A DNA stretch of 64,000 bases. Origin: Acidimicrobiaceae bacterium (GTDB lineage: Bacteria; Actinomycetota; Acidimicrobiia; Acidimicrobiales; Aldehydirespiratoraceae). Positions within the stretch are counted from its first letter, which is position 1. The number at the start of each line of letters is the position of its first letter. The stretch covers positions 4,927 to 68,926 of the forward strand of contig VYBO01000043.1 of NCBI GenBank assembly GCA_009844405.1. The letters are read 5' to 3'. The notes below the pieces were generated by a model. The model did not search any database, was not told where the DNA came from, and saw only the letters and a program-made list of their open reading frames with translations. A program made the position numbers and the translations under genes. Shown one piece after another: positions 9,495 to 57,131 of the stretch.

Positions 9495-9524
9495 AGCAAT
9501 AAAGCACTCAGTGCCCGGGTTCGG

Positions 9525-11822
9525 TCACGCGGGCTCGACGGTGACAGTCACCTGGGGCTGCCCGTCGTCTGTGACGGTGCTGGCGGCGACGGAGATGCGG
9601 TGGCCGTGAATGGTCACTTCGGTGGCGTAGTAACACTCAATGGGCAGACCGTTGGGCCATGGACCTCTGATCGTTTCGTTGGCGAACTGTCCTACAGGCG
9701 CGTAGTGCTTGCCGATGAGGCCGGTGGGGCCGTAGACAGGGGTCAGCTGCTCAATTCTGGAGGACGACACGACAGCCACGGTGGGGCTCACCAGCAACTG
9801 CGGTCGGTGATGTGACATTAGATCCACGTCATAGACGATGATGTCGCCCACAGGCCGTGTGCTTCTTGTGGCAGCGTGCCCTGCGCCGTCATAATCGTCG
9901 GGAGCAGCGCATTGGTACGGGCTGTAGGGCAATTCGCCGATGAAACACTGGGGTACGCCGGGAGGGCCTCGCGCCGCGAAAGGATCCGCCTCGATGACCA
10001 CTGCGGTGGAGTCTGAGGTCGGGACGATGGCAATGGCAGGGTTTGGCGCAGCGGTCCCCCAATAGCTGCCGCCGGAGTCCTCCCAGTCGCGATCCCAGCA
10101 GCGTTGTTCGGTGCCGTATGGGCGCGCGTTGAGGGTCGTCAACTGGTGAGGGCGCACCACAACCGTCGTAGTCTCGTCGGGCGATACGCACACTGCCTCG
10201 GGGCCATCGAGCCATCCCAGCAGCCACTTGTTCCATCCGGTGAGGGGCTCATGAGGATACCGTGCAGACGGCTGGCTGAGAGTAACGCCGCCGCTACCGG
10301 GGCCGCCGTACGCGATCGACTCGGCACTGAGGCTGCCGAGGCCCCATCCGTAGCTTGACATGCCCATCATCGAGTCCTGGCCAGAATCTCGGTCAGGCGG
10401 TCCGCGGCCGTCGTCGCGTGTAGTCGGATAGAGATCCTCAAGGCCGAGATGGTGCAGCAACTCGTGAGCGGCCGTGCCCAACGCCCAACCAAATCGGGCG
10501 TGGGACCAGCTATAGGCGTCGATGTCTGCCCAGGCGTCGGCATCGAGGCCCACCCATTGCTGACCGGGGTAGGGGTTGTCATAGGGGTCATCTTCGGCTT
10601 CGATGCTGGTGACCGCCACCCCGCCGCGACCATAGAACCCGGCGTAGGGGAACTCTTGGGTGACGGTGTGCAGCGCGAGCAGCAACTCATCGTCGGGGAA
10701 CAAGGCGCGCACTTCACTGGAAACGCCGCTCAGAGTCTGTCGGCCCAAGCTGGCAGGCCGGGCGCGGCTGTGGGCCGATCCCGACAGAGTCACCTCGCCG
10801 CCGCGACGAAACACCCAGTCGGTGCGCCCGTGTGACAGCGCCTCTAGCTTGGTCTCGACCGCAGCGAGCAACTCATCGATAAAGCGCTGCTCCGGTTGGG
10901 CGCCCAGTTCGCGGATGTAGCGCTCTCCCGGAGCGGGCAGATCATCGAACGCGACGGTGACCGCGGTCACCTCCACCCGCTGCGGCGCGGCGCCAGGGTA
11001 TACGTAGCCGGAGAAGGTGCGCCTCAGGTTCTCGCATGGCGCGGCCCTAGCCCAGTCCTGCAGGCGCTGCTGGAAGCCGATCACCGAGAACGTGTCTCCC
11101 TCATCAAGCACCGTGCAGGGCACCACCGCCGTGCGGCTATTGTCGGTGAGGCTGTGAGCGAATGTCGCGGTGCATCCTTCGTCTGCGCGACCAGTGGACA
11201 ATACGCTCCAGGTTCCCCACGAGTACGCAGCGGCGCGTGCCAGGAACAGCGACATGTGCCAGCGCGACACCTCGGCGTCAGGCCGGTACGTACCGTCGGA
11301 ATAGCCCACAGTGACGCAAGCCGCGGCGAGCCGCCTGATCGCATACCTATAGTGGTGGTCTTCGGCGACATCGCCGAAAGCCCGAGGCTCGCCGAGAGGA
11401 TCGGGAAGGCCGACGGCCCGCACCAAGAACACCGCCATCTGGCCCCGCGTCACTGACCGGTCCGGACAGAATCTCGCATGCTCACGTGAGCAGCCATCGG
11501 TGATACCCAACGCAGCAAACGTCTCAATATGAGCTGCCCAGGGGTCTGTGACTTCAACGTCCTCGAACCGCCCAGCGTGGCCCGCCAACTCAGCTCGACC
11601 CGCGTCGATCAACACCTCCACGACCCAACCCGCCATCTCACGACGCGTGATCGGCTCCCTACAGCCCTCACCGGTGCAGCCATCAGCAATGGACAGCAGG
11701 TCAACTGTCGCCGCTGGCCGGTCGTCAGAGGCAGCCGCCGGCGCGGTAACTAGTAGCGCCACAGCCGAGCTCACAGCCGGCTGCTGACACCGAGGCTCAA
11801 CCCCAAAAGTCCACCACTCCAC
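9525..11822 (-). CDS. Secreted SLH-like-repeat protein with HExxH zinc metalloprotease domain (M6/immune-inhibitor-A-like)
   Basis: The N-terminus is signal-like. It has three repeats of the form F.DV....W.A.....A..GIT.GC....FCP...VTRGQMA.FL.RA. The motif HELLHHLGLEDLY resembles the M6 HExGHxxGLPDxY signature. Confidence 0.7.
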   Translation of the reverse strand: MEWWTFGVEPRCQQPAVSSAVALLVTAPAAASDDRPAATVDLLSIADGCTGEGCREPITRREMAGWVVEVLIDAGRAELAGHAGRFEDVEVTDPWAAHIETFAALGITDGCSREHARFCPDRSVTRGQMAVFLVRAVGLPDPLGEPRAFGDVAEDHHYRYAIRRLAAACVTVGYSDGTYRPDAEVSRWHMSLFLARAAAYSWGTWSVLSTGRADEGCTATFAHSLTDNSRTAVVPCTVLDEGDTFSVIGFQQRLQDWARAAPCENLRRTFSGYVYPGAAPQRVEVTAVTVAFDDLPAPGERYIRELGAQPEQRFIDELLAAVETKLEALSHGRTDWVFRRGGEVTLSGSAHSRARPASLGRQTLSGVSSEVRALFPDDELLLALHTVTQEFPYAGFYGRGGVAVTSIEAEDDPYDNPYPGQQWVGLDADAWADIDAYSWSHARFGWALGTAAHELLHHLGLEDLYPTTRDDGRGPPDRDSGQDSMMGMSSYGWGLGSLSAESIAYGGPGSGGVTLSQPSARYPHEPLTGWNKWLLGWLDGPEAVCVSPDETTTVVVRPHQLTTLNARPYGTEQRCWDRDWEDSGGSYWGTAAPNPAIAIVPTSDSTAVVIEADPFAARGPPGVPQCFIGELPYSPYQCAAPDDYDGAGHAATRSTRPVGDIIVYDVDLMSHHRPQLLVSPTVAVVSSSRIEQLTPVYGPTGLIGKHYAPVGQFANETIRGPWPNGLPIECYYATEVTIHGHRISVAASTVTDDGQPQVTVTVEPA

Positions 11823-12003
11823 GGGACGCTCCCAACCGCGACTCTAAAGGCAGTCAGCCATGGCTTGTCGAATCCGCTGATTAGCGCTACTTCAAAGGAT
11901 CTCGGCTGGTCAACTAGGGGTAAAATTTTGCGTTTACCTTATTGATTTGAGAATCAACTCAAACTATTGCGCATTTGCGCAGGGACAATCGAGCGCGACT
12001 GCT

Positions 12004-13037
12004 CTAGTCATCTGCGTCGTGCTTCATCACGTAGTAGGCAGACCGCTTCACTCCGTGCATCTCGAGCCTGCCTTCGTCTCGCAGGCGGCGCAGCAGGCGA
12101 CTAGCCCTCTCGGAGTCAATCCGACACAACTCGGTGGCCTCCCGTCGAGTGATCGATCCATTCCGGTCTACGAAGGTGAGAACCATCTGTTCCTGTTGGA
12201 TGTCATCGAAGCCACGGGCACGCACGTACTGGGACGGATCACCGAGACGCTCATATAGAGAGGCGGCTAGGTGGTAGGTCCTCCCCTTGCCGTCACCTCG
12301 GGCCTCAAGCAGCGAACGGTCGACCAGGCTATTCAGTGAGGCCCGTGCGTCGTGTTGGTCGACTTGGAACAGCTCGGCAGCACGAGCGGACGTAATGCGA
12401 AGCTCAAGACGGATCTCGTGCAAGGTCAGGAGGTCCTGGAGAGAGAACTCTTGACCGCCACGTCGCGCTTCCACGATGAAGCTGGCCAGTTCCCGGTCAG
12501 CCGGTCCTGACCTGACCCTCGCAATCACCGTTCCTGCGGTGCTTTGGCTGTAGTCAGGCGCAGGTCTACCAAGTGCCAGCTGACTGGCAAAGGCTCGATT
12601 GATGCCCCTGCCGGTGCGCTCCACTAGTCCCGCCCGCTTGAAAGCGTCAGCCAATGCCGGATTGCGCGCGCGAGGTGGCGTGATGAGCAGGTTGCGAGTG
12701 GTGATGCCCTCAGGCAACCCACCAGGATTGGACACGACGAGGGCGTCACGCGTGACCTCTACGATCGTTGGTCCCGGGAGTGTGAAGTCACGGCTGGCTC
12801 GGTCTTGTTGACGATCAGCGATTGCAGTCGATTCGGATGTGTCTCGCTGCCATGGCGCGGTTCGGCGCCGACCACGTTGCCTTCATCGTCGACGCCAACT
12901 AGAAGAACCCCACCGCTGCCGTTGGAGAGGCAAGCTACAGCTTCTACGAGGTCGGAATCGTTGATGGATCCGCCTTTGAACTCCGCGGTGAGCGTTTCTC
13001 CCCGAATCAGGAGGTCTCGCAAGTGGTCCGAATCCAT
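12004..13037 (-). pseudogene. Remnant of AlbA_2 / HATPase_c_4 / wHTH putative DNA-binding ATPase (RecG-like annotation family), internal deletion plus frameshift
   Basis: ORF 12759..13037 encodes an AlbA_2-like N-terminus (GETLTAEFKG...GGVLLVGVDDEGNVVG). ORF 12004..12735, in a different frame, starts at the very end of a HATPase_c_4-like domain (VSNPGGLPEGIT...RNPALADAFKRAGLVERTGRGI) followed by a wHTH. About 150-200 aa expected between the two pieces are absent. The region has locally lower GC. Confidence 0.65.
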
Positions 13038-13179
13038 ACTCCTGCTTTAATATGGTCTTTTACGTTTACCTACATCTTTGCGTATTCGCTCAAATCTATA
13101 CGTGTTTGGGTATGACAAGTTCGCTGGCGGTCATGCGCTGGTACACCATGCCTTCGGCGAATCGAGCAACGCGGGCGGG

Positions 13180-13288
13180 CCGCCTAGATCGTTGAGCTAG
13201 GCCGCGCGGTTCATCTCCGACCTCGCCGACAGCGGTGACCCGAGTCGGCACCCGCCTAGATCGTTGAGCTAGGCCGCGCGGTTCATCT
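13180..13288. repeat. Perfect 37-bp direct duplication (13180-13216, 13252-13288) separated by a 35-bp unrelated filler; 72-bp unit
   Basis: ccgcctagatcgttgagctaggccgcgcggttcatct occurs twice, read directly from the sequence. The second copy touches the stop codon of the 13287..13754 gene. Confidence 0.95.
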
Positions 13289-13754
13289 ACGCCAAGACCG
13301 GGCAGGCGGTGAGCTTGTAGGTGTTGAGGCGCTTGCGCAGGGTGTAGAGCAGCAGGGCCACCGCCAGCAGGCCCACGGAGGGCTGCACCGGCGCCCACCA
13401 CGACAGCGCTCCGCCCACACCGACCAGGGCGACCACCGCTTGGTTGCACACCGGGCAGCCCACGGCCAGGAACGACACGAACCCGCCCCAGATGGTGCGG
13501 GTGCCCTGGCGCTCGGCGGCCTCGGCCAACCCGCTGGACTCGGCCGGCTCGGGACGGATGGCGAAGATCAGCCCGATCAGGGCCGAAGTGACCGCCAGGA
13601 TCACATAGTCGATCCATCGCACGGGCACCGGCCGGCCGAAGATCGGGGTGTCGATCAGGTCGGACGGCACCGCGATCAGCACCGCCGCGACGGCCCCGAA
13701 CAGCACCGCCCGCGGCCACGTGGCTCGGGGCAGAGCCAGCAGATCCTTGATCAT
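13287..13754 (-). CDS. Integral membrane protein with CPVC motif, function unknown
   Basis: 155 aa with about 4 predicted hydrophobic helices and a GCPVCN motif in a helix. No family is confidently recognised. Confidence 0.6.
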   Translation of the reverse strand: MIKDLLALPRATWPRAVLFGAVAAVLIAVPSDLIDTPIFGRPVPVRWIDYVILAVTSALIGLIFAIRPEPAESSGLAEAAERQGTRTIWGGFVSFLAVGCPVCNQAVVALVGVGGALSWWAPVQPSVGLLAVALLLYTLRKRLNTYKLTACPVLA

Positions 13755-13760
13755 CTTTAG

Positions 13761-14177
13761 TCAGGTGACCTTGTCGATGACCCGGAAGGCGTAGTCGCGC
13801 TGCTCGGCGCCGAGGGTGGCCCTCACCCGGTAGCCGCCGGGCTTGGGGAACTGGACGATGCCGGTGACCACCAGCGGCGAGCGGCTGTCGGAGCCGGGAA
13901 CCTTGCCGGGCGGGCGACCGACCTCGATGTTGGCCTTGGCCTCCATCAGCTTGTGGTGGCCGTCCTCGTCCTCGACCCGGATCATCACCTCGTGGCGCTG
14001 GTTGTGCTCCAACCACGGGACCCGCACCGACAGCGCGATGGAGAAGTGCTGCGGCCGGGGCTTCTTGCCCTCCTTGTAGGCCCGGGTGACGGTGTCCCAT
14101 CCCGCGCCCATCAGGTACAGAAGTCCGTTCTGCACCTCGGCATGGTTGGCCAGGGTCAGCAACTCGATCTGGGCCAC
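13761..14177 (-). CDS. Hypothetical protein (beta-rich, ~138 aa)
   Basis: Clean ORF with a plausible ATG, located 6 nt upstream of the membrane protein gene. No recognisable motif. Confidence 0.5.
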   Translation of the reverse strand: MAQIELLTLANHAEVQNGLLYLMGAGWDTVTRAYKEGKKPRPQHFSIALSVRVPWLEHNQRHEVMIRVEDEDGHHKLMEAKANIEVGRPPGKVPGSDSRSPLVVTGIVQFPKPGGYRVRATLGAEQRDYAFRVIDKVT

Positions 14178-14231
14178 ACGCGGCAGTCTAAGAGTGAACG
14201 CCGGCGGGCGAGAGCCGGTCGGTTCGCCGCG

Positions 14232-15779
14232 CTACTCGCTCCCGGCCGGGGCGAGGCCCAGGCGCTCGGCCAGGCCGATGCGCTGGAGCTTGCCGGTGGG
14301 GCCCTTGGGCAGCTCGTCGAGCACCAGGATCCGGCGGGGAACCTTGAACGCGGCCAGCGACTGCGACAGGAACCGGCGAAGCTCCCGCTCGTCGACGGAA
14401 CTCCCGGAGACGGCCGCGACCGCCGCGGCCACCTCCTCGCCCAGCTTGGGGTGGGGCACGGCGAAGGTGACCGCCTGGGCCACCGACGGGTGGCCCAGCA
14501 GGGCCTCGTCCACCTCCAGCGGGGAGACCTTCTCGCCGCCGCGGTTGATCTGCTCCTTGAGGCGGCCGGTGAGGAACAGGTAGCCGTCGTCGTCGACGTA
14601 GCCCTCGTCGCCGGTGCGGAACCAGCCGTCGGTGAAAGCGGCCGCGTTGGCCTCGGGGTTGTTCTCGTAGCCGTCGATCACGGTCGGGCCCTTGATCGAC
14701 ACCTCTCCCCGTTCGCCGGGTGGCAGGGGCCGGTTCCGGCCGTCGAGCACGGCCAGCTCGATGCCGGCGGGGACCCCGACCGACCGGGGCTTGGCCACCG
14801 CCGGGGGCAGAGGGTTGGCGCACATCTGGTGAGTGGCCTCGGTCATGCCGTAGGCCTCGATCACGGGCGCGCCGAACAGCTCGCCCAGCTCGTGCAGCAC
14901 CGGGGCCGGAAGAGACGCGGAGGAAGACCTCACGAAGCGCAGGCCGGCGGAGCGGGCCGTGTCGCGGTGGCGGTCGGCGCGGGAGAGCACCATCTGATGC
15001 ATGGTCGGGACCGCGGTGTAGTAGCTGGGCTCCAGGGCTTCGAGCTGAGCGAAGAACCTGAAGGCGTCGAAGCCCTCGGTGCAGGCGACCGCGCCCCCCG
15101 CCGACAGCGGCGCCAGCAGCCCGGCCAGCAGCCCGTGGATATGGAACAGCGGCATCACCTGCAGCGACCGGTCTCCGGGAGTCAGGGCGAGCGACACGGC
15201 GATGCCCGCCGCCGAGCGGGCCAGGTGCCGTTGGCGCAGCGGGACGATCTTGGGCCGCGACGTGGTGCCGGAGGTGTGCAGGACCAGGGCCACGTCGTCG
15301 GCGACAGGATCGCCCGGAGCGGGCGCGCCGCCCTCCCCGGACCCGGCGACCAGATCGAGCGCACCGGCACTGCCGTCGACCGAGCCGGCCAGCGACACCG
15401 GCAGCACGGCGGCGCCCGCCTCGCGGGCCGCGGCCCGGGCGACGGCCCCGGAGTCGTCGGGCAGGGTGACCAGGGCCTTGGCGCCGAGGTCGTCGAAATA
15501 GAAGCGCAGTTCGTCGGTGCGGTACTTCGGGTTGAGCGGCGCGGCGCATCCGGTGCAGGCCGCGGCCAGGAAGGCGAGAGCCATCTCAGGCCCGTTGGGA
15601 ACGACGATGGCGATGCGGTCGGCCGGGCCCAGGCCGAGGCCTCGGAGCCGGCCCGCGAGCCGGTCCACCTCGGACCGCAGCTCGGCGTGGGTGAGCACCG
15701 ACCCGTCGGGCGAAACGATCGCCGGCGCGCCGTCGGCCCCGGTACCGAGCAGGCCTCGCAGCGTTTCGCCTGCCGTCAC
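14232..15779 (-). CDS. AMP-dependent acyl-CoA synthetase/ligase
   Basis: AMP-binding signature LVLHTSGTTSRPK, and later GWFRTGDEGYVDDDGYLFLTGRLKEQINRGGEKVSP. The GTG at 15779 overlaps the panE stop (GTGA). The track ORF 14232..16550 is over-extended. Confidence 0.85.
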   Translation of the reverse strand: MTAGETLRGLLGTGADGAPAIVSPDGSVLTHAELRSEVDRLAGRLRGLGLGPADRIAIVVPNGPEMALAFLAAACTGCAAPLNPKYRTDELRFYFDDLGAKALVTLPDDSGAVARAAAREAGAAVLPVSLAGSVDGSAGALDLVAGSGEGGAPAPGDPVADDVALVLHTSGTTSRPKIVPLRQRHLARSAAGIAVSLALTPGDRSLQVMPLFHIHGLLAGLLAPLSAGGAVACTEGFDAFRFFAQLEALEPSYYTAVPTMHQMVLSRADRHRDTARSAGLRFVRSSSASLPAPVLHELGELFGAPVIEAYGMTEATHQMCANPLPPAVAKPRSVGVPAGIELAVLDGRNRPLPPGERGEVSIKGPTVIDGYENNPEANAAAFTDGWFRTGDEGYVDDDGYLFLTGRLKEQINRGGEKVSPLEVDEALLGHPSVAQAVTFAVPHPKLGEEVAAAVAAVSGSSVDERELRRFLSQSLAAFKVPRRILVLDELPKGPTGKLQRIGLAERLGLAPAGSE

Positions 15780-16825
15780 CGGCCCGCCTCGGGTCTCCCG
15801 CTCTTGTTCGCTGCGCTCACGGGCCGCTCGGGCCACGGCCTCGCAAGCTCGGCCTCTAGGCGGCGGTTGAGCAGGGAGGCCAGCCCGTAGACGGTGCTGA
15901 TGGCCGGGGTGGGCACGCCGGTGATCCCGCCGAGTTCGACGAACACGCCGACCAGCGGGTCGAGCTCCAGCGGCCGGCCGGCCTCGGAGTCCTGGAGCAT
16001 CGAAGTCTTGTGCTCGCCGACCGCCTCGGCCCCCGCGATGCGCTGCTCGACGCTGACCCGGATGCGCACGCCGAGCGCCTCGGCGATCCTGCCGGCCTCG
16101 GTCATCATCTGCGCGGCCAGTTCCCGGGTGGCCGGCGTGCGGCAGATGCCGGCCAGCGTCGCCCCGGTGAGTGCGCTGATCGGGTTGAAGGCCAGGTTGC
16201 CCCAGGCCTTGACCCAAAGGTGCGAGCGGATGTCGGTGAGCACCCTCGACTTGAACCCGGCCGAGGTCAGGGCCCCGGCCAGCGCCTTGACCCTCTCCGA
16301 CTTGGTGCCGTCGAGCTCGCCCACCGGGAAGCGGTCGCCCTCGACATGGGTGACCACCCCGGGTGCGGTCTTCGCCGCGGCCGGGTAGGCGATGCAGGCC
16401 ACGATCCGCTCCGCGTCGATGGCTGCCGCGAGCACGCCGTCGGGATCCAGCGCCTCGAGCCGTCGACCGGCGTGGGGACCGCCGTGGCGCTGGAAGTACC
16501 ACCATCCGATGCCGTTCTGCACCGGCACGATCATGGTGCCGTCGTCGCACAGCCGTGCGAGCTCATGGGCCACAGCCGCGATCTGGTGGGCCTTGAGAGC
16601 GAGGATCACCGCGTCGTGGGTGCCGAGCGCCCCGAAGTCGTCGGATGCGTCCAGATCGGAGGCGACGGTCTCGGTGCCGTCAAGCTCAACCAGCCGCAAG
16701 CCATCGCGCCTGATGGCGTACAGGTGCTCGCCTCGTGCAATGACGCTCACGTCATGTCCGGCCACAGCCAGGCGGGCGGCCATCATCCCCCCGATCGCGC
16801 CCGCGCCAACGACACAAGTCCTCAC
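15776..16825 (-). CDS. panE: 2-dehydropantoate 2-reductase (ketopantoate reductase)
   Basis: N-terminal Rossmann VRTCVVGAGAIGG and the ApbA/PanE C-terminal domain are present. GTG at 16825. The last ~25 codons are encoded by the dispersed element. Confidence 0.8.
   Translation of the reverse strand: MRTCVVGAGAIGGMMAARLAVAGHDVSVIARGEHLYAIRRDGLRLVELDGTETVASDLDASDDFGALGTHDAVILALKAHQIAAVAHELARLCDDGTMIVPVQNGIGWWYFQRHGGPHAGRRLEALDPDGVLAAAIDAERIVACIAYPAAAKTAPGVVTHVEGDRFPVGELDGTKSERVKALAGALTSAGFKSRVLTDIRSHLWVKAWGNLAFNPISALTGATLAGICRTPATRELAAQMMTEAGRIAEALGVRIRVSVEQRIAGAEAVGEHKTSMLQDSEAGRPLELDPLVGVFVELGGITGVPTPAISTVYGLASLLNRRLEAELARPWPERPVSAANKSGRPEAGR
15794..15859 (-). repeat. MIRU/REP-like dispersed element, short form (copy 1)
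   Basis: The reverse complement reads ctagaggccgagcttgcgaggccgtggcccgagcggcccgtgagcgcagcgaacaagagcgggagac. The core is nearly identical to the copies at 24436, 24482 and 26578. Confidence 0.9.
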
Positions 16826-17024
16826 CGCGACAGTGTGCCAGCGGATTCGGGTCGTACGGTATACCGCCTCAGCGCGGCGGTGCCGAGACCCTGGGGGGAG
16901 GCCTCGGCACCGATTGGGGGCTGGAGAACCCAAGGATCGCACCCTCAAGTAAGAACTGCGCGAGAACGGTCTCAGCCGACGGCCGACCGCGTGACCTGTC
17001 GGGAGCGCCCCCAGACATGAGCTG

Positions 17025-17880
17025 CTAGACGCGGTTGAGTGCCCGCCAGACCCGCTCGGGAGTGAAAGGGATCTCGAACAGGCGAACGCCAGTGGCATTG
17101 ACGATCGCCGATCGAACTGCGGGGGCGATGCTGTCCACGCCGATCTCCGCCACCGCCTTCGCTCCATAGGGTCCGCTGTCCTCCATGGTCTGAACCAGGA
17201 TCACTTCGATCTCGGGCATGTCGTCAGCCCGGTAGATGCGGTACGGCCCGAACGCGGGGTTGATGCAGCGGCCATTGCCGTCGTAGACCATCTCCTCGCA
17301 GATGGCGTATCCGAGCGCTTGCATCATGGCGCCCTCACGCTGACCCGAGGCGGGTCGAGGGGGATGACCGCCTCGGGGCCGGCCTCCCCCCTTGCATCAT
17401 GGCGCCCTCACGCTGACCCGAGGCGGTGATGGGATTGATGGCAACGCCGCAGTCGATGGCCATCACCAGCTTCTTGGCGGTGACCTGCCCGGTCTCCACA
17501 TCGACCTCGATCTCGGCGAACTGTGCCGCCCAGGGCGGCGGAGACTCCGGCGACACGTAGGAGGCCTGGCCCATGATCTGGTGCTGCTCGTCCTGGTGAA
17601 GCGAGTTGAGGGCGACCTCCTCCAGCGACACCGACTCCCCGGACGGCGCCCAGGCACGCCGGTCGCGCAACTCGATGGTGCAGGGCACTTCGACGCCGAG
17701 CATCTTCGCGGCCCGCTCCTTGATCTGCCACCAAACTGCTTCGGCCGCCTTCTTGGTGGCGGTGCCCGAGATGTACGTCGTGCTCGAGGCGTAGGCGCCG
17801 GTATCGAAGGGCGTCACGTCGGTGTCGGACGAGTAGATCAAAATGTCCTCATCAGGGAACTGGTGAACATGCGCCAGAAA
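17025..17880 (-). pseudogene. Xanthine dehydrogenase/aldehyde oxidase family molybdopterin-binding subunit, C-terminal fragment only, frameshifted by a 73-bp insertion
   Basis: ORFs 17335..17841 and 17025..17327 together encode ...DTDVTPFDTGAYASS...AIDCGVAINPITASGQREGAMMQ|ALGYAICEEMVYD...YGAKAVAEIG. This is the last ~280 aa of a CoxL/XdhB-like protein. The N-terminal ~450 aa are absent. Confidence 0.75.
17318..17426. repeat. Perfect 36-bp direct duplication (17318-17353, 17391-17426) separated by a 37-bp filler; 73-bp unit
   Basis: cttgcatcatggcgccctcacgctgacccgaggcgg occurs twice. The filler is gtcgagggggatgaccgcctcggggccggcctccccc. Removing one copy plus the filler restores the xdh reading frame. 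Confidence 0.95.
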
Positions 17881-17892
17881 GGGAGGAGCCGC

Positions 17893-18249
17893 GTGGGCAC
17901 ATTCAACCGGCCGATCCGGCTCGACAGCATGGACGGTAAGCGGTCCTTGCGACTCGACGCGTTGGTGGACACCGGCAGCTTCTACACGATCGTGCCCGCC
18001 AGCATGCTGACGAGACTGGAGGTCGCTCGGACCGACGAAGCCTGGCTCGAACTAGCCGACGGGCGGCAGGTCCCCTACGACATGGGAGAGGCTCGAGCCA
18101 CGGTGGACGGGCGCAGCACCGCTACCTGGGTGGTCTTCGGCGAGGATGGCGTTCGTCCCTTGCTCGGGGCGTACACGCTCGAGGGACTCCGCCTGTCGGT
18201 CGATCCAGTCGAAGAGACTCTCGTGCCCATACCCTACGTACGGGCGTAA
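17893..18249 (+). CDS. Retropepsin-like (clan AA) aspartyl protease family protein
   Basis: 118 aa with LVDTGSFYTIVP (DTGS active-site motif). GTG at 17893 is preceded by GGGAGGA at 17881-17887. It lies in frame inside track ORF 17392..18249. Confidence 0.7.
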   Translation: MGTFNRPIRLDSMDGKRSLRLDALVDTGSFYTIVPASMLTRLEVARTDEAWLELADGRQVPYDMGEARATVDGRSTATWVVFGEDGVRPLLGAYTLEGLRLSVDPVEETLVPIPYVRA

Positions 18250-18273
18250 CGCCCGCTGTCACTGATCGCCACT

Positions 18274-19923
18274 GTGCCGGTGGGCATCGTCCGCGACGCC
18301 CACACCATGACCCCGCAAGGCCACTCCCCGACCGGATCCCGAGCTGCGGTGTCGGCTGGCCATGTAGAAGCCACTCGGGCCGCAGCAGTTCTGCTTCGCG
18401 CGGGCGGATCGGCGGTCGACGCGGCCATCGGGGCCGATGCGGTCATGGGGGTGGTGGAGCCTACCGGCGCCGGCGTCGCTGGAGATCTGATGGCTGTCTT
18501 GGCCACTCGCGAGGGAGTCTCAGTGCTCAACGGCAGCGGCCGCTCGGGGCGGGGCACGGACGCGGAGTCGGTGCCCGACAACGGCCACGGCTTCGTGCCG
18601 TCCGCCGGAGGATGGGCGGTGACCGTGCCGGGGGCGGTGACCGCATGGGAGGACCTGCACTGGCCCGTCTGCTGGCGCTGCCAGTTCGGGGACCCCCTGC
18701 CGGGGGCGGTGACCGCATGGGAGGACCTGCACGGCCGGTTCGGCCGGTTGCCATGGCCGTCGCTGTTCGAGCCGGCCATCGAGGCCGCCACCGAGGGCGC
18801 CGAGGTCGGCGCGACCGGGAGCCGGCTCTGGGAGGGTTCCCGAGGCCGGCTGGACGCCGCAGGCGAGGCGCTCTACTTCCCGAACGGCGCAGCCCCCGTG
18901 GCGGGCGACGTGTGGCGCAATCCACCCCTGGCCGAGGTGCTGACGCAGGTCGCAGCCGACGGTCCCGATGCCCTGTACCGCGGCCCGCTGGCCCGGGCCG
19001 TATGCGAGGCCGCCACCGCGGCGGGCGGGCGCATGCACATCGACGACCTGGCCGAGCACCGCAGCGAATGGGTCGACCCGCTGCGAGCGGGCCTGGGGGA
19101 GCACGAGCTCATCACGGCGCCGCCTCCGTGCCAGGGCGCGGTCACGGCTCTCGCTGCCGAATGGGTGCACGACCGGGGCCTGCTCGGCGCCACCCGGGAC
19201 GATGCCGGAGCCGAGGCCGCGGCATCCATGGTCGAGGCGCTCGACCGCGCCTTCGCGTTGGCCCTGGACTGCCTGGCCGACCCAGCCGTAGCCGAAGTGC
19301 CTGGTTACAACGAGATGAGGGCCCGGATGGCTGGCGCGCCGCGACGCGGACCGATGCCGCTGGGGCCGGGAACGGTGTTCACGGTGGTGTTCACGGCCGA
19401 GCAGGCAGTGGTGCTGACCTCCAGCGTGTGCGACCGGTTCGGGTCGGGAGTGACCGTGCCCGAGGGCGGCTTCGTGCTGCAGAGCAGGGGACGGGGCTTC
19501 TCCACCGATCTGAGCCACCCGAACGCGGTGGCACCCAACAAACGCCCCTACCACACGATCGTTCCCACGCTGGTGCTCGAGAACGGCCAACCCATGCTGG
19601 GCATGGGAGTAGTAGGCGGGATCATGCAGCCCCAGGGCCAACTGCAGATCCTGCACCGGGTACTCGGCGGCGCGGACCTGACCGCCGCCGTCGAAGCCGG
19701 CCGGTTCCGCCTGATCGGCGAAGGGCAGGTCACCACGGAAGCCAGCCTGGAGCCCGAATGGCGAGCCGCCATCGGCCGAGCCGGCTATGACCTCGTCGAC
19801 ACAGCCGACGTGATCGGCGGCTTCGGCGGCGCCCAAGCCGTCCTGAGTGCAGGCGACACCCTGACCGCGGCCAGCGATCCCCGCCGCGACGGCGCCTCAG
19901 CCCTTATCGGGATGACTGACTGA
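18274..19923 (+). CDS. ggt: Gamma-glutamyltransferase family protein carrying a 24-aa in-frame insertion
   Basis: GGT-family features are present, including the conserved T in PYHTIVPT (autoprocessing site region) and GGIMQPQGQLQ. The insertion WPVCWRCQFGDPLPGAVTAWEDLH is encoded by 18661-18732. Confidence 0.85.
   Translation: MPVGIVRDAHTMTPQGHSPTGSRAAVSAGHVEATRAAAVLLRAGGSAVDAAIGADAVMGVVEPTGAGVAGDLMAVLATREGVSVLNGSGRSGRGTDAESVPDNGHGFVPSAGGWAVTVPGAVTAWEDLHWPVCWRCQFGDPLPGAVTAWEDLHGRFGRLPWPSLFEPAIEAATEGAEVGATGSRLWEGSRGRLDAAGEALYFPNGAAPVAGDVWRNPPLAEVLTQVAADGPDALYRGPLARAVCEAATAAGGRMHIDDLAEHRSEWVDPLRAGLGEHELITAPPPCQGAVTALAAEWVHDRGLLGATRDDAGAEAAASMVEALDRAFALALDCLADPAVAEVPGYNEMRARMAGAPRRGPMPLGPGTVFTVVFTAEQAVVLTSSVCDRFGSGVTVPEGGFVLQSRGRGFSTDLSHPNAVAPNKRPYHTIVPTLVLENGQPMLGMGVVGGIMQPQGQLQILHRVLGGADLTAAVEAGRFRLIGEGQVTTEASLEPEWRAAIGRAGYDLVDTADVIGGFGGAQAVLSAGDTLTAASDPRRDGASALIGMTD
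18626..18732. repeat. Perfect 35-bp direct duplication (18626-18660, 18698-18732) separated by a 37-bp filler; 72-bp unit
   Basis: tgccgggggcggtgaccgcatgggaggacctgcac occurs twice. The filler is tggcccgtctgctggcgctgccagttcggggaccccc. Confidence 0.95.
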
Positions 19924-24376: not shown

Positions 24377-24520
24377 AGAGGCCGAGCGGGCGAGCGACAC
24401 TCCATGAGGAAATCGAGAGGCCTTCAGCGAGGCCCCGGGGCCGAGCGGCCCGTGAGCGAAGCGAACAAGAGCGGGAAGCACGGCCCGAGCGGCCCGTGAG
24501 CGCAGCGAACAAGAGCGGAG
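24377..24520 (+). repeat. MIRU/REP-like dispersed element, long form plus an extra tandem core (copy 2)
   Basis: agaggccgagcggg...gcgaggccccggggccgagcggcccgtgagcgaagcgaacaagagcggga is followed by a second core, ggcccgagcggcccgtgagcgcagcgaacaagagcgga. Confidence 0.9.
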
Positions 24521-26517: not shown

Positions 26518-26624
26518 AGGCCGAGCGGACGAGCGGACGAGCGCGCACTCGTGAGGAACTTGACGACGCACTCAGCGAGGCCGTGGCCCGAGCGGCCCGT
26601 GAGCGCAGCGAACAAGAGCGGGAA
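26516..26624 (+). repeat. MIRU/REP-like dispersed element, long form (copy 3)
   Basis: It starts within the TAG stop of the GntR gene: ctAGAGGCCGAGCGG...gaggccgtggcccgagcggcccgtgagcgcagcgaacaagagcggga. Confidence 0.9.
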
Positions 26625-28465: not shown

Positions 28466-31400
28466 TCACACGGTGAGGGCCTGCCAGCAGACGAGGTGGA
28501 CGTCGGCGGCAGTGATCTCAGGGAGGGGCTCGGGCACCGGCTGGGGCTGCAGGCCCTGCTCGTCGATCACCCGCAGCACGGCCTCGGCCTGCGCGGCGGG
28601 CTGCTCCGCCGGCCTCAGGGCGGCTCGCACCAGGCGGGTGACGCGCTCGGTGTAGGGCGCCTGAAGGCTGTCGATGGCTCGGGCCACGTCGTGCTGGGTC
28701 ATCGACGGCGGAGGATTGGAACGCACGATCTCGGCCGCCTGTCGCAGGGCGGCAGGTATGCGGGGCTCGAGGTTGGCCTTGTCGGCGAAGTGGTTCCAGC
28801 GCGCCACGATGTCGGCGCGGGCCGCCTCCCATGCCGTGAAAGCCGTCTCCAAGGTCGCGTCGTCGAACTGGCGCGGCGTCTCGAACCCGTCGGCGGGCCG
28901 GGCGAGCCACAGGCATTCGAGCGTGTCGCTGCTGACCCGGCCCGATGCGCCCACGAACCTGAACTGCGGGTTCGGGTCGTCGCCCACCCTGGCGCAGAAC
29001 ACATGCCCGGACTCCCCGCCGGGGTGTGCCGCCATCCCCGAGCCGGTGCCCCAGGGCAGGCGCTGCAAGACGCGATGCATGTCGGGATCGTCGACGGCGC
29101 GCCGGAGCTCGGCCCTGAACTCCTCGCCGGACTGTGCGCCGAGATCGGTGCCCCCGCGCTCGAAGATCGCGGCGTCCTCGGCGCGGAGGCGCTCGATCTC
29201 GGCCCGGGTCTGGCTGAAGCTGCGATCGAGGCTGCGCTCCTGGTCGGGTATGACCTCACCGACTCCGATGGAGGCCGCAGCTTGGGCAATCTTGCGGTTC
29301 AGCCGCTCCTCGAGGCCCAGAAGCTCGTCAAGGCGCCTGTCGGGAAACACGCAGCTGATGAACACTTCGCGGTGCCTGGAGCCGATCCGGTCGATGCGAC
29401 CGTGGCGCTGCACGAGCCGCATCGGGTTCCACGGCAGGTCGTAGTTGACGATGTGGCGGGCCTGTTGGAGGTTCACGCCCTCGGCAAGCACGTCGGTGGT
29501 GACGAGAATGTCATAGAGGTCGGGATGGTCGAGCCCCGGCGCCGCGGTGCGGGGGGCGAAGCTCAGCGCCGGATCACGGGCATGCCCCGAGCCGCCGGTG
29601 TGCCAGGCGATCCTGCCTCGGTAGGCGGACAGTCGCTCGTCTCGCACCACGGCATCCTCGAGGAAACCGACGATCCATTCCACCGTGTCGGCGAAGTAGG
29701 TGAACACCAGCACTTTGCGGCGGTCGCGGGTGTCGTCGGCGCCTATGCCGTCGCGCTCGGCCTGCTGGACGACGCCGGCCAACTCATCGGCCAGCGCGGC
29801 CAGAGTGGGATCGTCGGAGCGCGTCACCGTCTGTGCCTGCCGGGCGAAGTCGCTCAGCAGTCGGTGGTCGCGGCGGGCGTGGGCCACCATCTTGCCGACG
29901 TCGAATCCGGCGGCATCCTCCAGATCCTCGTGGTGGGCGTCGAGGTACTTGTCGATCTGTTCCAGGTCGTCGGAGTCGGTGCTCGCCCAGTCGGCTATCG
30001 CGCCGCCGGTGGCGACTCGGCCGTGGAGCTCGGCGAGTTCCGCGAACGCCAGGCAACCCTCGGCCATCCGCCGGCAGGTCTTCGCGAACGCCCACGGGGA
30101 AGACTCGAAGCGCTTGAGCAGGCCCGAACGCAGCAGCCCGGCGAGCTGCAGCTCATATGCGTCCGGGTTGTCGCGGCCGAGCCGGTAGTTGGAGGGCACG
30201 TAGCGCGCCAGGGTCAGCACCGCGTCGTCGGTGTCGGGGGCTGCGTCCGGGTTGAGCGCGGCCGCAAGCCGCTCGAAGAAGCCGGGCAGCACGCCGTCCA
30301 GGTCGTAGGTGACCTTGTGGACTCTCGGGGTCGGGAACACGATCTGGTGGTCCGCGCCGTCGATGCGCACCGTGTCGTTGGCGTAGTGCTTCTTGACGAA
30401 CGAGCGCGTGCGCCGGACGGCCACCGCGTCGAGCACGTCGAACAGGTGCTGGGGTGACAGGTCGTTGGGATCCTGGCGCATGGCCTCCGCGAAGTGGTCG
30501 CGCAGCGAGCGGATCCCGTCAGCGGCGAAGGTGCCGTCGTTGCGCAGGAAGTATCCGAGCAGGTGGTAGAGGTCCCAGAGGCTGTTGTTGACCGGGGTAG
30601 CGGTCAGCAGCACCAGCTTCTTGGGCGGGAGTCCGGCCAGCAGCCTCCGCAGCGACTCGGCCCTCTGGGTGGACGGGTTGCGCAGATTGTGGGCCTCGTC
30701 CACCACGATGAGGGCGTAGTTGTGAAGGTCGGGCCCGAGCGGGCGCGACGGCTGGCGCCCGGCCTCTTCGGCATGTTCGGCCCTCTCGCGGTTGAGTCTC
30801 GGATCGTCGGCGAGCGCGTCGAACGACACCAGGGTCATCGGCAGGTTGTGCTGCTGCCTGAAGGCCTCCCAAGGGCCGTCGCGCAGCGTCGCCGGGCAGA
30901 TGACCAGCACTCGCTGGCGGCGTTCGACGGCGGCTTCCTCGATGAGCTTGCCCGCGAAGTAGGTCTTGCCCAAGCCGACCTCGTCCGCGACGAGCACGCC
31001 GTTGTAGGCGTCGAGCAGCTTTCGGGCGCGCCACAGGCCGTCCTTCTGGAACGAGGTGAGCTCGATCGTCGACCGCGGCAGGGCGGCCTCGTCGTCTTCG
31101 GCCAGTTCGCGGCCGTAGCGCTCCCACAGCATCCGCAGATAGATGAGCTGCGGAGGGTGCGGCTCGAAGCGGGGAGCGAAGATCGAGGCGAGGTCGTAAT
31201 CGGCGGCGGAGCCCCAGAGCCCGTCGAACCATTGGGCCACAGCCGTCACCGTGTGGGGGGTGTAGTTGCCGAGGTTCAGCTCGAGGTTCGTCGAGAGGCC
31301 GGCGCGGGTGAAGTTCGACGACCCCGAGACGACTCCGTGGGAGTGGGTGGCCACCAAGAACGCCTTGCCGTGAAGGAACCTGTCCTCTAGGCGGCGCACC

Positions 31401-31816
31401 TGCACTCGGCCGCTGCGCAGCCAGTCCAGCAGCCGGCGCGCCGTGCTGTCGGCCTCGACGGTGAACCCGAGCAGGTCGCGGTCGGCGGCGAGCGCCTCCT
31501 CGTGGGAGTCGAGCAGGTCGCCGACTCGGCGCAGTTCGGCGCGGTGCGAGTTGGCCGGCTCGCGCTTGAGCGCACGTCGTCGGCTCTCCGGCGGCGCGGG
31601 CTCAGCGCCGAGCAGCAGCCGCACGCCTGACAGCTTGTCGAGCGAGTCTGCGAGCAGCGAGTAGCCACCGACGTTGAAGTAGGCGGTGGCGACGTCGAGC
31701 CGAACGTCGTGGGCGAACCCGTCGGCGGCGTGGCCGATGAACCCGTTGAGTGCATCGGCCACCGTCGCGCCGTGCTGGTTGACAGCCAACTCGGGCTTGG
31801 CCTCCCCGCTACTCAT
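28466..31816 (-). CDS. PLD-family (HKD) nuclease domain fused to SNF2-family helicase
   Basis: N-terminal HGKAFLV...GSSNFTRAG is a single HKD motif. It is followed by SNF2 motifs LVADEVGLGKT, VVDEAHNLRN and LLTATPVNNSL, and a helicase-C region, LAEGVNLQQARHIVNYDLPWNPMRLVQRHGRIDRIG. Confidence 0.85.
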   Translation of the reverse strand: MSSGEAKPELAVNQHGATVADALNGFIGHAADGFAHDVRLDVATAYFNVGGYSLLADSLDKLSGVRLLLGAEPAPPESRRRALKREPANSHRAELRRVGDLLDSHEEALAADRDLLGFTVEADSTARRLLDWLRSGRVQVRRLEDRFLHGKAFLVATHSHGVVSGSSNFTRAGLSTNLELNLGNYTPHTVTAVAQWFDGLWGSAADYDLASIFAPRFEPHPPQLIYLRMLWERYGRELAEDDEAALPRSTIELTSFQKDGLWRARKLLDAYNGVLVADEVGLGKTYFAGKLIEEAAVERRQRVLVICPATLRDGPWEAFRQQHNLPMTLVSFDALADDPRLNRERAEHAEEAGRQPSRPLGPDLHNYALIVVDEAHNLRNPSTQRAESLRRLLAGLPPKKLVLLTATPVNNSLWDLYHLLGYFLRNDGTFAADGIRSLRDHFAEAMRQDPNDLSPQHLFDVLDAVAVRRTRSFVKKHYANDTVRIDGADHQIVFPTPRVHKVTYDLDGVLPGFFERLAAALNPDAAPDTDDAVLTLARYVPSNYRLGRDNPDAYELQLAGLLRSGLLKRFESSPWAFAKTCRRMAEGCLAFAELAELHGRVATGGAIADWASTDSDDLEQIDKYLDAHHEDLEDAAGFDVGKMVAHARRDHRLLSDFARQAQTVTRSDDPTLAALADELAGVVQQAERDGIGADDTRDRRKVLVFTYFADTVEWIVGFLEDAVVRDERLSAYRGRIAWHTGGSGHARDPALSFAPRTAAPGLDHPDLYDILVTTDVLAEGVNLQQARHIVNYDLPWNPMRLVQRHGRIDRIGSRHREVFISCVFPDRRLDELLGLEERLNRKIAQAAASIGVGEVIPDQERSLDRSFSQTRAEIERLRAEDAAIFERGGTDLGAQSGEEFRAELRRAVDDPDMHRVLQRLPWGTGSGMAAHPGGESGHVFCARVGDDPNPQFRFVGASGRVSSDTLECLWLARPADGFETPRQFDDATLETAFTAWEAARADIVARWNHFADKANLEPRIPAALRQAAEIVRSNPPPSMTQHDVARAIDSLQAPYTERVTRLVRAALRPAEQPAAQAEAVLRVIDEQGLQPQPVPEPLPEITAADVHLVCWQALTV

Positions 31817-32498
31817 CGGGCTCGATCACCTGCCAGCGCTGCTCTCTGAGCACACCGGCAGCTATGTCCGGGGACCGCCGCACCGCCGCTCGAAGCTGGC
31901 CGTCTCGAAATCGCTGCCGCGACTCGTTCAGAGCCTTCTCCCACCCAGGCCGCGGCTCCACGAGCCGCTCAAGGATGCAGAACTCGATCAAGTCCTCCAG
32001 ACAAGGGCGGTATCGCCGCCCACCGACGGGGAAGTGCAAGTCATCAGGCTTGTGCTTGGGGCGTCCACATCGCTCCAGCATGTCCTGCACCGCGACTGAC
32101 TCGCCATGGAGATGAAAGTGAGCCTCGGGGTACTCATTCGGAGGATCCCGGGTGTAGTCATAGGTCAAGATCGGCTCTGAATTGGTGGCGTGCATGAGCT
32201 TATAGCTGCTCTTGGTCGTGGTGAGAAACCGCTGCGATTCGTCGAGCGCGAGCGTGTGCAACAGGCGCAACGCCAACAGGGCCGGGGCCTGAGATAGGGT
32301 CAGCGCTACTGGGTCACCGCGTGGCTTCAGTCGGGAAATCTGGTTCCCAATCGCAGCGCGACCGCTTGCCTCCATCAGCACGGACAGGCAGAGACCGTGC
32401 GTGAGGGTGCGATTCAGCGCCTTAGTGAGTTCGCCAGCAAACTCCCGAGCTTGGCGATCGAGGTTAGGCTGGCGACGGCTCGGCGAAGGTCGAGACAA
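31809..32498 (-). CDS. Hypothetical protein, 229 aa, translationally coupled to the helicase
   Basis: The stop overlaps the helicase ATG by 8 nt (GATGAGTAG). No recognisable domain. The start is uncertain (TTG at 32498 or internal). Confidence 0.5.
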   Translation of the reverse strand: MSRPSPSRRQPNLDRQAREFAGELTKALNRTLTHGLCLSVLMEASGRAAIGNQISRLKPRGDPVALTLSQAPALLALRLLHTLALDESQRFLTTTKSSYKLMHATNSEPILTYDYTRDPPNEYPEAHFHLHGESVAVQDMLERCGRPKHKPDDLHFPVGGRRYRPCLEDLIEFCILERLVEPRPGWEKALNESRQRFRDGQLRAAVRRSPDIAAGVLREQRWQVIEPDE

Positions 32499-32673
32499 CG
32501 AACCAGGCCTCGCGGGCCGTCTCGTTCGTAAATCGTCCGGCTCGAGCCTGATCTTGCAGTGCCTCCCAGCTGTAGCCAGCTTCAGCCAACGCGTTGCTGA
32601 TCAGTTCCTCGATCCCCGCCTCGTCGAGGACTTCGACCTCAATGTCGGCGTAGGGATCTTCGTTGGCGCTCAT
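32464..32673 (-). CDS. Small acidic protein, 69 aa, unknown function
   Basis: ATG at 32673 is preceded by a strong GAGGAGGAG Shine-Dalgarno sequence. The protein MSANEDPYADIEVEVLDEAGIEELISNALAEAGY... is highly acidic. The track start at 32748 is less likely. Confidence 0.5.
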   Translation of the reverse strand: MSANEDPYADIEVEVLDEAGIEELISNALAEAGYSWEALQDQARAGRFTNETAREAWFVVSTFAEPSPA

Positions 32674-32935
32674 TGGCTCCTCCTCACTCAAGCCGTAGCG
32701 GCCACCCGGCCTCGGACTGACGTGCATCATCCTATGACGGTGTGACATCGACTGGAGCCAGCCTTCGTCGCACCCAAGCGAACGACACGATTATAGCCGT
32801 TCACGATCTCGGCCTCGCTCAACCTCAAAGTCGTCGTAGAGGTCATCAACGAGATCGGCGTCCTCGCAGGAGTTCATCGCCCCCTCCGCCTCGTTGGTCA
32901 TGGGGGTACGGGGTCGCACTACTTCGCGGCGCACC

Positions 32936-33778
32936 CTAACGGGAGATGGCAGCGGACCAGCGGCGAAAATGAACGAGGACCGCGGCATGGTGCTCGGCGT
33001 AGCGGTCGGGGCGCCTGGCATCGAAGGTGCTGTACAGCACGGCCAGATCGTCCTCGTCGAGGCCATAGAGATGCGCCACGCACGCATCGAGCTCGGCAAT
33101 CAGATCGTCCTTGGCCTTGCGATCGTTGACGGAGCCGACCGGCACTCCTACATTCCTGGCCCAGTCGGCGAAGCGATCGTCCACCGCAGCCAGCCGCCCC
33201 GCAATCTCGACGACGCGGTCGCGAACTGGGTGGCCCTCGCCCGGGTCGGGCACCGGCAGCGCATTGAGGACATGGAAGTTCAGGCTCATCTCGACGGTCC
33301 GCCGGGCACACCAGTCCATAATCATCCAAGCCAACAGCCCAAGCACGAACGCCTCGTCGCGACAACCACCACGGGTTTGGAGGAGGTATGGACCCTTGTT
33401 GGTGATGACGACCCGAGGCGGGATGAGCGCCGCGACGATGGTACGGGTGTTGGTCGGGTTAGTCACGTCTCGGAAGGCGATGCGCGGATTGCGACACGGC
33501 AGGGTCGCTGGGTCAAGGAGAACCGGCTGGCGTAGTTCAGCGAAGGCTGACCGGACAGTCCGGCTTTGCGACTGGCGCTTCTGCTGAAGGTTAGCCGTGA
33601 TGCTCACAGCATCAGCGCTGTCATAGAAGTCGCCGGTGTCGGGCTGCCAGAGGTTGAAGCTCTTGCCCGCGTAGACGGGCCAGACATCGCCAGTCCTCGG
33701 CTCGGACGGTTTGCTGTCATCGCTGCTGGGCCTCCCTGAGTTGCCGGTAGATCGCGAGGACCTCGTCCCGGCGGTCAT
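32936..33778 (-). CDS. Methyltransferase C-terminal cassette, paralog 2 (possibly non-functional: no start adjacent to conserved WPVY)
   Basis: ...VWPVYAGKSFNLWQPDTG...RIAFRDVTNPTNTRTIVAALIPP...LDACVAHLYGLDEDD is about 60-65% identical to the ORF at 33717..34478. The nearest in-frame ATGs are at 33778 and 33862, both overlapping the paralog-1 3' end. Confidence 0.5.
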   Translation of the reverse strand: MTAGTRSSRSTGNSGRPSSDDSKPSEPRTGDVWPVYAGKSFNLWQPDTGDFYDSADAVSITANLQQKRQSQSRTVRSAFAELRQPVLLDPATLPCRNPRIAFRDVTNPTNTRTIVAALIPPRVVITNKGPYLLQTRGGCRDEAFVLGLLAWMIMDWCARRTVEMSLNFHVLNALPVPDPGEGHPVRDRVVEIAGRLAAVDDRFADWARNVGVPVGSVNDRKAKDDLIAELDACVAHLYGLDEDDLAVLYSTFDARRPDRYAEHHAAVLVHFRRWSAAISR

Positions 33779-34478: not shown

Positions 34479-34503
34479 CGCTCAGTCTCCGCGCTGGAAG
34501 CCG

Positions 34504-34715
34504 CCGCGCCGTCGTCGTTCATGAACCTGTCCCGGTCGCCGGTGGCGTCGAGTTCGCGGACCGGGCGGAAGCGCCATCGTCGTTCACGAAGAGGCTCCGG
34601 TCGTGGGTCGCGTGGAGCTCTGCGACTGCTCGGAAGCGCCACGTCCGTCGTCCCGGAAGAACCGGTGGCGGTCGGTCGTTGCGTTGAGATCGCCTTGGAC
34701 CGGCCGGAATCTCCA
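34504..34715 (-). repeat. Three diverged tandem units (74, 65, 73 nt) each encoding the WRFR..EL.AT.DR..F..DDG motif in a different reading frame
   Basis: Units lie at 34715-34642, 34641-34577 and 34576-34504 in gene sense. Manual three-frame translation is given in the findings. Confidence 0.85.
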
Positions 34716-34724
34716 TCTCCGACG

Positions 34725-34735
34725 CCCCCCCCCCC
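34725..34735 (-). repeat. Homopolymer C11 (G11 in gene sense) inside the methyltransferase
   Basis: gacg + 11 c + gcagg, read directly from the sequence. Confidence 0.98.
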
Positions 34736-35206: not shown

Positions 35207-35230
35207 AGAGAGAGAGAGAGAGAGAGAGAG
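35207..35230 (-). repeat. (AG)12 on plus strand = (CT)12 in gene sense, inside the methyltransferase
   Basis: Read directly: gcttgc(ag)x12 atttattcgg. It is translated as SLSLSLSL in the track ORF. Confidence 0.98.
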
Positions 35231-55614: not shown

Positions 55615-55646
55615 GCCCCCAGCGTATGGGCGCAATCCCCCGCTGG

Positions 55647-55735: not shown

Positions 55736-55760
55736 CCCCACTCGCGGCGTGCCTAGCCTT

Positions 55761-57050: not shown

Positions 57051-57052
57051 CC

Positions 57053-57100: not shown

Positions 57101-57131
57101 CGATTCCCGCCGCCGAGACGGCCGACCGTCC

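Follow-up and report, generated by a model that had tools for sequence, protein, structure and literature searches.

The window analysed here, a stretch of 64,000 nt from contig VYBO01000043.1 of an Acidimicrobiaceae bacterium (assembly GCA_009844405.1), to the whole of which all coordinates refer, contains three short sites, named events A, B and C, at which an exact direct repeat of local sequence brackets an unrelated filler. Event C is located in an open reading frame (ORF) on the plus strand (18274–19923, 549 aa) which, judged from its PF01019 core and Ntn-hydrolase fold, is assigned to the gamma-glutamyltransferase (GGT) family. The 35-mer TGCCGGGGGCGGTGACCGCATGGGAGGACCTGCAC is present in exactly two copies in the window, at 18626–18660 and 18698–18732 (plus strand, 72 nt from start to start), and gave no match in 100 dinucleotide shuffles of the window with up to three mismatches permitted. 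Between the copies lies the spacer-like 37-nt filler TGGCCCGTCTGCTGGCGCTGCCAGTTCGGGGACCCCC (18661–18697, plus strand), which is unrelated to the bracketing repeats. The first copy encodes PGAVTAWEDLH (GGT residues 119–129) and the filler encodes WPVCWRCQFGDP(L); the translation across the unit is ...VTVPGAVTAWEDLHWPVCWRCQFGDPLPGAVTAWEDLHGRFGRLPWPSLFEPAIE..., and the product reads VTV-PGAVTAWEDLH-WPVCWRCQFGDPL-PGAVTAWEDLH-GRFG. The 72 nt amount to 24 extra codons in frame, and the ORF is open despite the insertion. The original prediction had described an exact 35-bp duplication with a 37-bp filler, giving an in-frame 24-aa insertion in an ORF which stays open, and had pointed to two further events in the window with matching geometry; coordinates and filler letters were as given, the 549-aa ORF bore out the uninterrupted frame, and the two other events are present at 13180–13288 (event A) and 17318–17426 (event B).

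Event A consists of 37-nt exact copies at 13180–13216 and 13252–13288 on either side of a 35-nt filler (13217–13251, all on the plus strand), with a spacing of 72 nt; the duplication is possibly one of 36 nt extended by a single chance match. The event is intergenic, and its second copy shares 2 nt with the stop codon of a 155-aa gene on the minus strand (13287–13754), which is intact. Event A is situated at the edge of a variable island of lower GC content (9500–13040, 64%), which contains an SLH-like ORF of 765 aa (637–765 aa across the strain assemblies) and an AlbA_2/HATPase_c_4 gene pair. Event B has 36-nt copies at 17318–17353 and 17391–17426 (plus strand), a 37-nt filler at 17354–17390 and a spacing of 73 nt. 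Its host, at 17025–17841 on the minus strand, is the C-terminal remnant of a molybdenum hydroxylase gene with the MoCoBD_2 domain alone, based on gene calls and Pfam matches in three related loci (L001, L003 and L011). This gene has 259 aa in strains without event B, and the 73-nt insertion turns it into ORFs of 168 and 100 aa; it was probably a gene remnant already before event B took place. Beyond this fragment is an unrelated 118-aa ORF on the plus strand (approximately 17893–18249), in which a retropepsin-like DTG motif was seen by eye, and which has no Pfam match on record.

The three units A, B and C have duplications of 37, 36 and 35 nt and inserts of 35, 37 and 37 nt, with totals of 72, 73 and 72 nt, respectively. 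A window-wide scan showed these to be the sole exact short-range repeats of this design in the 64 kb, and a sliding comparison of the window at every spacing from 40 to 130 nt revealed no further or decayed events. Each repeat is local sequence, differs from site to site and is found in two copies only, and hairpin potential mildly exceeded that of shuffled sequences for filler A alone (z = −2.9), and did not do so for the other fillers or the targets. An Rfam search covering 13000–19000 gave no family near the events at E ≤ 1, using a library which we take to include models for direct repeats of CRISPR loci. A bona fide CRISPR array was rejected, because the repeat differs per site and has two copies only, there are no cas genes and there is no Rfam match.

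The locus was then drawn from 7 metagenome-assembled genomes (MAGs) of NCBI and 9 per-sample assemblies of ENA (ENGE20-1_SAMN123476xx) via a look-up of two neighbouring proteins; the ENGE20 label and PMC8163846 suggest that the samples are marine-sponge microbiomes. Contig VYCJ01000172.1 (L001) of MAG GCA_009843995.1, also named 'Acidimicrobiaceae bacterium', was reached via the sole homolog with the GGT insertion (P0001, 99% identical). It is approximately 99% identical to the window over 8240–29929 and contains event C, the filler of which differs by a single T-to-C change that replaces Trp by Arg. At the sites of events A and B this contig has exactly one copy of the repeat and no filler, and empty A and B sites were also found in four further assemblies. 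Three haplotypes were present among the scanned records: A+B+C+, as in the window, and A−B−C+ either with or without the single-nucleotide polymorphism (SNP) in the filler. Strains are polymorphic for events A and B, which are linked. Event C was found in every record of the population (>12 NCBI and ENA assembly records) and is fixed in the population sampled, with GGT genes that are 99.9–100% identical, i.e. at the species level. In an ortholog with 88% nucleotide identity (L002) the site of event C is empty, as apparent from a 72-nt gap.

Short repeats around a piece of unrelated sequence, in data of metagenomic source, have the shape expected from bad gap closure, where assembly or scaffolding joins overlapping contig ends across junk. 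The chance that the events arose in this way is negligible: identical events are seen in at least 12 contigs from different samples, in both the NCBI MAGs and the ENA per-sample assemblies, their presence and absence are consistent and strain-specific, there is an SNP inside filler C, and the coding DNA in filler B is genuinely of phage type (see below). An assembly artefact is excluded by the agreement between two sources of data that are independent and between several samples, together with the strain-specific occurrence of the events, and events A, B and C are genuine; the concern raised beforehand, that read evidence might speak against the duplication, is answered by this recurrence across many assembly records. 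Comparison of the region 14000–16100 of the window with L001, L010, L013, L016 and L019 showed that the differences sit in short mosaic patches (e.g. 14023–14223, 14371–14454, 14897–15081 and 15988–16070), combined differently in each assembly, which suggests frequent short-tract recombination, or switching of the consensus among co-existing strains. The idea that events A and B are carried by one recombination tract was rejected, since the SNP patches between them are small, vary by assembly and are not delimited by the events.

The protein context of event C was compared with the wider GGT family. PF01019 is present in all homologs of the 549-aa ORF, the PDB matches are GGT or cephalosporin-acylase structures, and the closest solved structure is PDB 2nlz (E = 1.6e-56), to which HMMER aligned both copies of PGAVTAWEDLH at the same residues, 119–129. 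In an alignment with 13 orthologs of 59–88% identity there is a 24-column gap precisely at the first copy plus the filler, and together with L002 there are 14 orthologs in this range of identity without the insertion. A single copy is thus normal for the family, as had been supposed in the original prediction, and its placement of the insertion in a conserved segment is upheld by the flanking residues V118, P143, G144, W149 and L152, which are invariant in an alignment of 49 sequences. Fixation of the insertion in all sampled strains would be in keeping with an old loop specific to the lineage, or with a tandem duplication of 72 nt that has diverged in its middle. The insertion is absent in 14/14 orthologs, the repeat copies are identical at 35/35 positions and the similarity between filler and flanks is at shuffle level; the ortholog gaps and the filler-flank scores refute both versions, to which we attach virtually no probability. 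The old loop had been set beforehand as the outcome that would speak against a recent event; what was found is an insertion confined to one species-level population, and we consider event C recent because it is lineage-restricted. An AlphaFold2 model of the GGT with its insertion, based on the 49-sequence alignment, had a predicted template modelling score (pTM) of 0.86, and placed the second copy in the native helix (H145–156) and residues 103–141, which include the first copy and the filler, in a low-confidence loop. Judging from this model, the GGT fold would plausibly tolerate the insertion as a loop.

The fillers were subsequently searched for possible sources. No filler recurs elsewhere in the window or in the related loci, and alignments of fillers with flanks or repeats mostly scored like those of shuffled sequences (the top z of 2.2 is uncorrected for 18 comparisons). 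The fillers are therefore not local duplications or products of local template switching. Accordingly, a filler which is a diverged copy of the flank, from tandem duplication or a local template switch, was rejected on the shuffle-level scores and the lack of any other local copy, and so was slippage tandem duplication, as the filler does not equal the flank. Scans of IMG/VR with half-fillers gave chance matches without extension (L020, L021 and L023), with the exception of a tape-measure match for filler B, and no filler matched the PLSDB plasmids.

Filler B matched IMG/VR contig UViG_3300015263_000638 (L022) with 28 consecutive nt exact and 31/37 overall, within a 642-aa ORF which corresponds to a tail length tape-measure protein (PHROGs, E ~1e-31). 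On the minus strand (frame 2) the filler reads G GGG GAG GCC GGC CCC GAG GCG GTC ATC CCC CTC GAC, giving GEAGPEAVIPLD with a GC content at third codon positions (GC3) of 1.00. In a BLASTN search of 50,697 GenBank phage records, 37 records covered at least 80% of filler B, with the match in genes annotated as tape measure protein in 29 of these 37, from hosts as diverse as Halorubrum, Microbacterium, Escherichia and Bordetella; as a control, filler C gave one record and filler A three, with mixed annotations. A protein search for the GEAGPEAVIPLD motif in a tape-measure context yielded 79 tail-protein fragments (exact 12-mer in 23/79). Because of the 28-nt exact match, the 29/37 tape-measure records and the recurring tail-protein motif, filler B is identified by its sequence as a piece of a tape-measure gene from a high-GC phage or prophage.

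Fillers B and C (17354–17390 and 18661–18697) each start with GGGGG on the minus strand. This shared start would be in keeping with the fillers being footprints of an excised insertion sequence (IS) with long target duplications, similar to IS1549 or IS1634, of which approximately 36 nt of the ends were left behind, and some elements of the IS4 family do make long and variable target duplications. Such a footprint is highly improbable here: the three fillers are unrelated and single-copy, filler B corresponds in frame to part of the tape-measure motif, terminal inverted repeats are missing, and no transposase is encoded in the vicinity. The insertion of an IS or of a miniature inverted-repeat transposable element (MITE) was likewise rejected on unrelated, single-copy fillers, missing inverted repeats and the lack of an adjacent transposase. 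In filler B at least four of the five G residues belong to the Gly-Glu codons GGG GAG, although the consensus residue before Gly is Ile, the codons of which do not end in G. The GGGGG run was discarded as a sign of tailing or of a common element end, since in filler B it largely consists of tape-measure motif codons (xxG-GGG-GAG), while the GGGGG start of filler C could hint at a preference in an acquisition step.

Capture of foreign DNA could also result from error-prone break repair or template switching, in which filler DNA is captured by non-homologous end joining (NHEJ), or by microhomology-mediated break-induced replication (MMBIR) or fork stalling and template switching (FoSTeS), and the flank is locally re-copied. 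Actinobacteria commonly carry the Ku/LigD NHEJ system, which is capable of capturing filler DNA, and the fillers are indeed non-local. Break repair has no ruler, however, which makes three independent events of 35–37 plus 35–37 nt, each of 72–73 nt in total, unexpected, and no range of other sizes is seen in the window; we regard this route as improbable.

Our best reading of events A, B and C, at a probability of slightly below 0.6, is that a Cas1-Cas2-type integrase from CRISPR adaptation inserted spacers at off-target (ectopic) positions and left these scars behind, where the nature of the enzyme is deduced from its presumed products. The original prediction had offered no mechanism. This reading is based on the exact target duplications of 35–37 bp, the foreign inserts of 35–37 bp, the near-constant unit of 72–73 bp and the empty sister alleles, and spacer integration by Cas1-Cas2 is, to our knowledge, the sole reaction which has all four properties. 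With Cas1-Cas2, the points of attack on the two strands are separated by one repeat length, and the repeat becomes duplicated when the gaps are repaired. Units of approximately 36+36 nt fit CRISPR systems with repeats of 36–37 nt, such as the direct repeat (DR) locus of M. tuberculosis and many type I-G, I-D and III arrays, and the near-uniform insert lengths (35, 37 and 37 nt) fall within the spacer range of ~35–40 nt of such systems in general, which is not a range measured for the host itself.

In the proposed series of steps, two transesterifications would link a prespacer of approximately 36 bp, derived from phage DNA at least once, to ordinary chromosomal DNA, one on each strand and at points approximately 36 bp apart, with this attack distance representing the ruler which normally spans one CRISPR repeat. 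Gap filling would then duplicate the 35–37 bp between the points of attack, and the product would be a target copy, the insert and a second target copy, together 72–73 bp or one repeat plus spacer of CRISPR systems with 36–37-nt repeats. The insertions that survived would be those which did little harm, as event A is intergenic (past a preserved stop codon), event B is in an already truncated gene and event C forms an in-frame loop, for which the chance is one in three. The genome would be expected to have, or to have had, a CRISPR-Cas system with repeats of ~36 nt. For E. coli, off-target integration by Cas1-Cas2 into non-CRISPR DNA with repeat-length spacing has been described in vivo (Nivala et al. 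2018, as summarised in 10.1101/148544, PMC7054753 and PMC11788318), off-target integration by P. furiosus Cas1-Cas2 has been described in vitro (PMC6698737), and sponge symbionts, Actinobacteriota among them, are reported to show an enrichment of CRISPR-Cas genes (PMC8163846, PMC11706023).

Several observations weigh against spacer integration. Searches of the 64-kb window, of the fetched loci and of strain contigs over ~10 kb round the right end of the window (L024, six genes past the window end) turned up neither cas genes nor a CRISPR array. No exact protospacer for full or near-full fillers was found in IMG/VR (fillers A, B and C), in JGI metagenome contigs or in GTDB genome contigs (fillers B and C for both), and filler A gave only chance-level matches in the viral and phage searches, with no source for filler C in the viral, genome, metagenome, phage and plasmid searches. 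The duplication is not of constant length (35–37 nt), and all three events fall inside 5.5 kb, with none in the other 58 kb, a clustering which comes without an explanation. Finally, the three target sites, few as they are, have no motif in common above shuffled expectation; published off-target sites tend to resemble the CRISPR repeat.

The lack of cas genes in the window and of a shared repeat-like motif at the target sites would also be in keeping with a hitherto unrecognised integrase or transposase-like enzyme outside the Cas systems, encoded by the host or a phage (e.g. a relative of solo Cas1 or of casposases), which makes staggered cuts of approximately 36 bp and inserts short fragments, and which would give the same duplication-insert anatomy and the same empty sites. 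There is no candidate gene for it close to the events, casposases make 14–15-bp duplications and insert kilobase elements, and we know of no enzyme other than Cas1-Cas2 that pairs a target duplication of ~36 bp with an insert of ~36 bp; we think such an enzyme unlikely. Going beyond the three events, spacer integration outside arrays might be a recurrent natural mutational process here, writing phage pieces of ~36 bp into genes, sometimes fixed as heritable in-frame insertions such as the 24-aa loop of the GGT, and seeding repeat-spacer-repeat units that might become new CRISPR loci, or else there might be an undescribed integrase with a ruler of ~36 bp; this generalisation is put forward tentatively and we are rather doubtful of it.

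If the mechanism of off-target spacer integration is right, the locus is a further natural example of a known process which is rarely documented in nature. Most observations of off-target integration come from E. coli with Cas1-Cas2 overexpressed and from in vitro work, and papers citing the original study describe the natural evidence as circumstantial and from two species. The locus adds a natural case resolved within a population, where occupied and empty alleles are found among co-occurring strains, together with an insert which can be traced to a phage tail gene (filler B), and an event fixed within a conserved enzyme with the reading frame kept. The three events would illustrate both a cost of adaptive immunity, in the form of gene disruption, and its possible creative side, in the form of new protein loops and proto-CRISPR units. 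They also suggest a signature for genome-wide searches, consisting of an exact duplication of ~R nt round a foreign insert of ~S nt, where R+S equals the array unit.

The remainder of the window contains other repeats and islands. A 26-nt exact direct repeat (51507–51532 and 51599–51624, spacing 92) was tried as a fourth event and rejected, as its filler is a copy of a dispersed element of ~50 nt, and it represents a class other than the 72-nt events; its second copy resembles the sequence following the dispersed element at 60698–60733. This GC-rich element (TCCCGCTCTTGTTCGCTGCGCTCACGGGCCGCTCGGGCCACGGCCTCGC), with a GGGCCG..CGGCCC palindrome, is found at 15795–15844, 24441–24518, 26575–26623 (minus strand), 51537–51587 and 60647–60697, and also at 7484–7579 in L001, where there are two tandem copies versus one in the window, so that strains differ in tandem copy number. 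It is sometimes arranged in 44-nt tandem units, and looks like an intergenic element of the repetitive extragenic palindromic (REP) or MITE type. An imperfect 43-nt direct repeat (55634–55676 and 55693–55735, 84% identity, spacing 59) is located at the start of the selA-selB (selenocysteine) pair at 55557–58850. A defence island at 28466–38273 contains an HKD/PLD + SNF2 helicase resembling DrmD (28466–31816, minus strand) and a type IIG restriction-modification or DrmMI-like enzyme (34947–38273, minus strand). For two extra ORFs at 32936–33862 and 33717–34478, both on the minus strand, the match to the same type IIG profile is confined to its C-terminal part, which serves target recognition, and these ORFs may be spare specificity modules. 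A possible tRNA-associated island, at 61627–63679 and in L024, has a DUF4143 ATPase and the very-short-patch endonuclease Vsr after tRNA-Pro(CGG), joined in related contigs by an HNH protein and one more AlbA_2/HATPase_c_4 gene.

Compared with known systems, the three events share with filler capture by NHEJ or alternative end joining (alt-EJ) the presence of short foreign or ectopic DNA at a chromosomal site, but neither a ruler nor a regular target duplication would be expected from such capture. Insertion sequences with long duplications (the IS1549 and IS1634 group) similarly have direct repeats of tens of bp around inserted DNA, although these are kilobase IS with a transposase and widely varying duplications; the three sites have no IS, a constant length and fillers unrelated to each other. 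Casposons resemble the events in having a target-site duplication made by an integrase of the Cas1 family, which is the presumed enzyme in our case. They have 14–15-bp duplications and are multi-kilobase elements with terminal inverted repeats, unlike the duplication and insert of ~36 bp each seen here. Canonical leader-repeat adaptation in systems with 36–37-nt repeats has an equal unit size, the staggered attack and gap-fill duplication that we propose for these sites, and a phage insert as in filler B; in contrast to such adaptation, the duplicated sequence is local and site-specific, and there is no leader, array growth or adjacent cas operon. The 'neo-CRISPR' seeds of Nivala, Shipman & Church 2018 (Nat Microbiol 3:310), as outlined in the papers citing them, are alike in having a spacer-sized insert with repeat-length duplication of non-CRISPR DNA, one unit per site, an insert from DNA elsewhere and ruler-like constant spacing. 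The events described here differ from these seeds in being natural events in an uncultured bacterium without overexpression of Cas1-Cas2, and they have a unit of 36+36 nt, versus 28+33 nt in E. coli and a 30-bp spacing in Pyrococcus. They are also set apart from the known off-target cases by target sites without a repeat-like motif, and by one event which is fixed in its population, in frame within a conserved enzyme.

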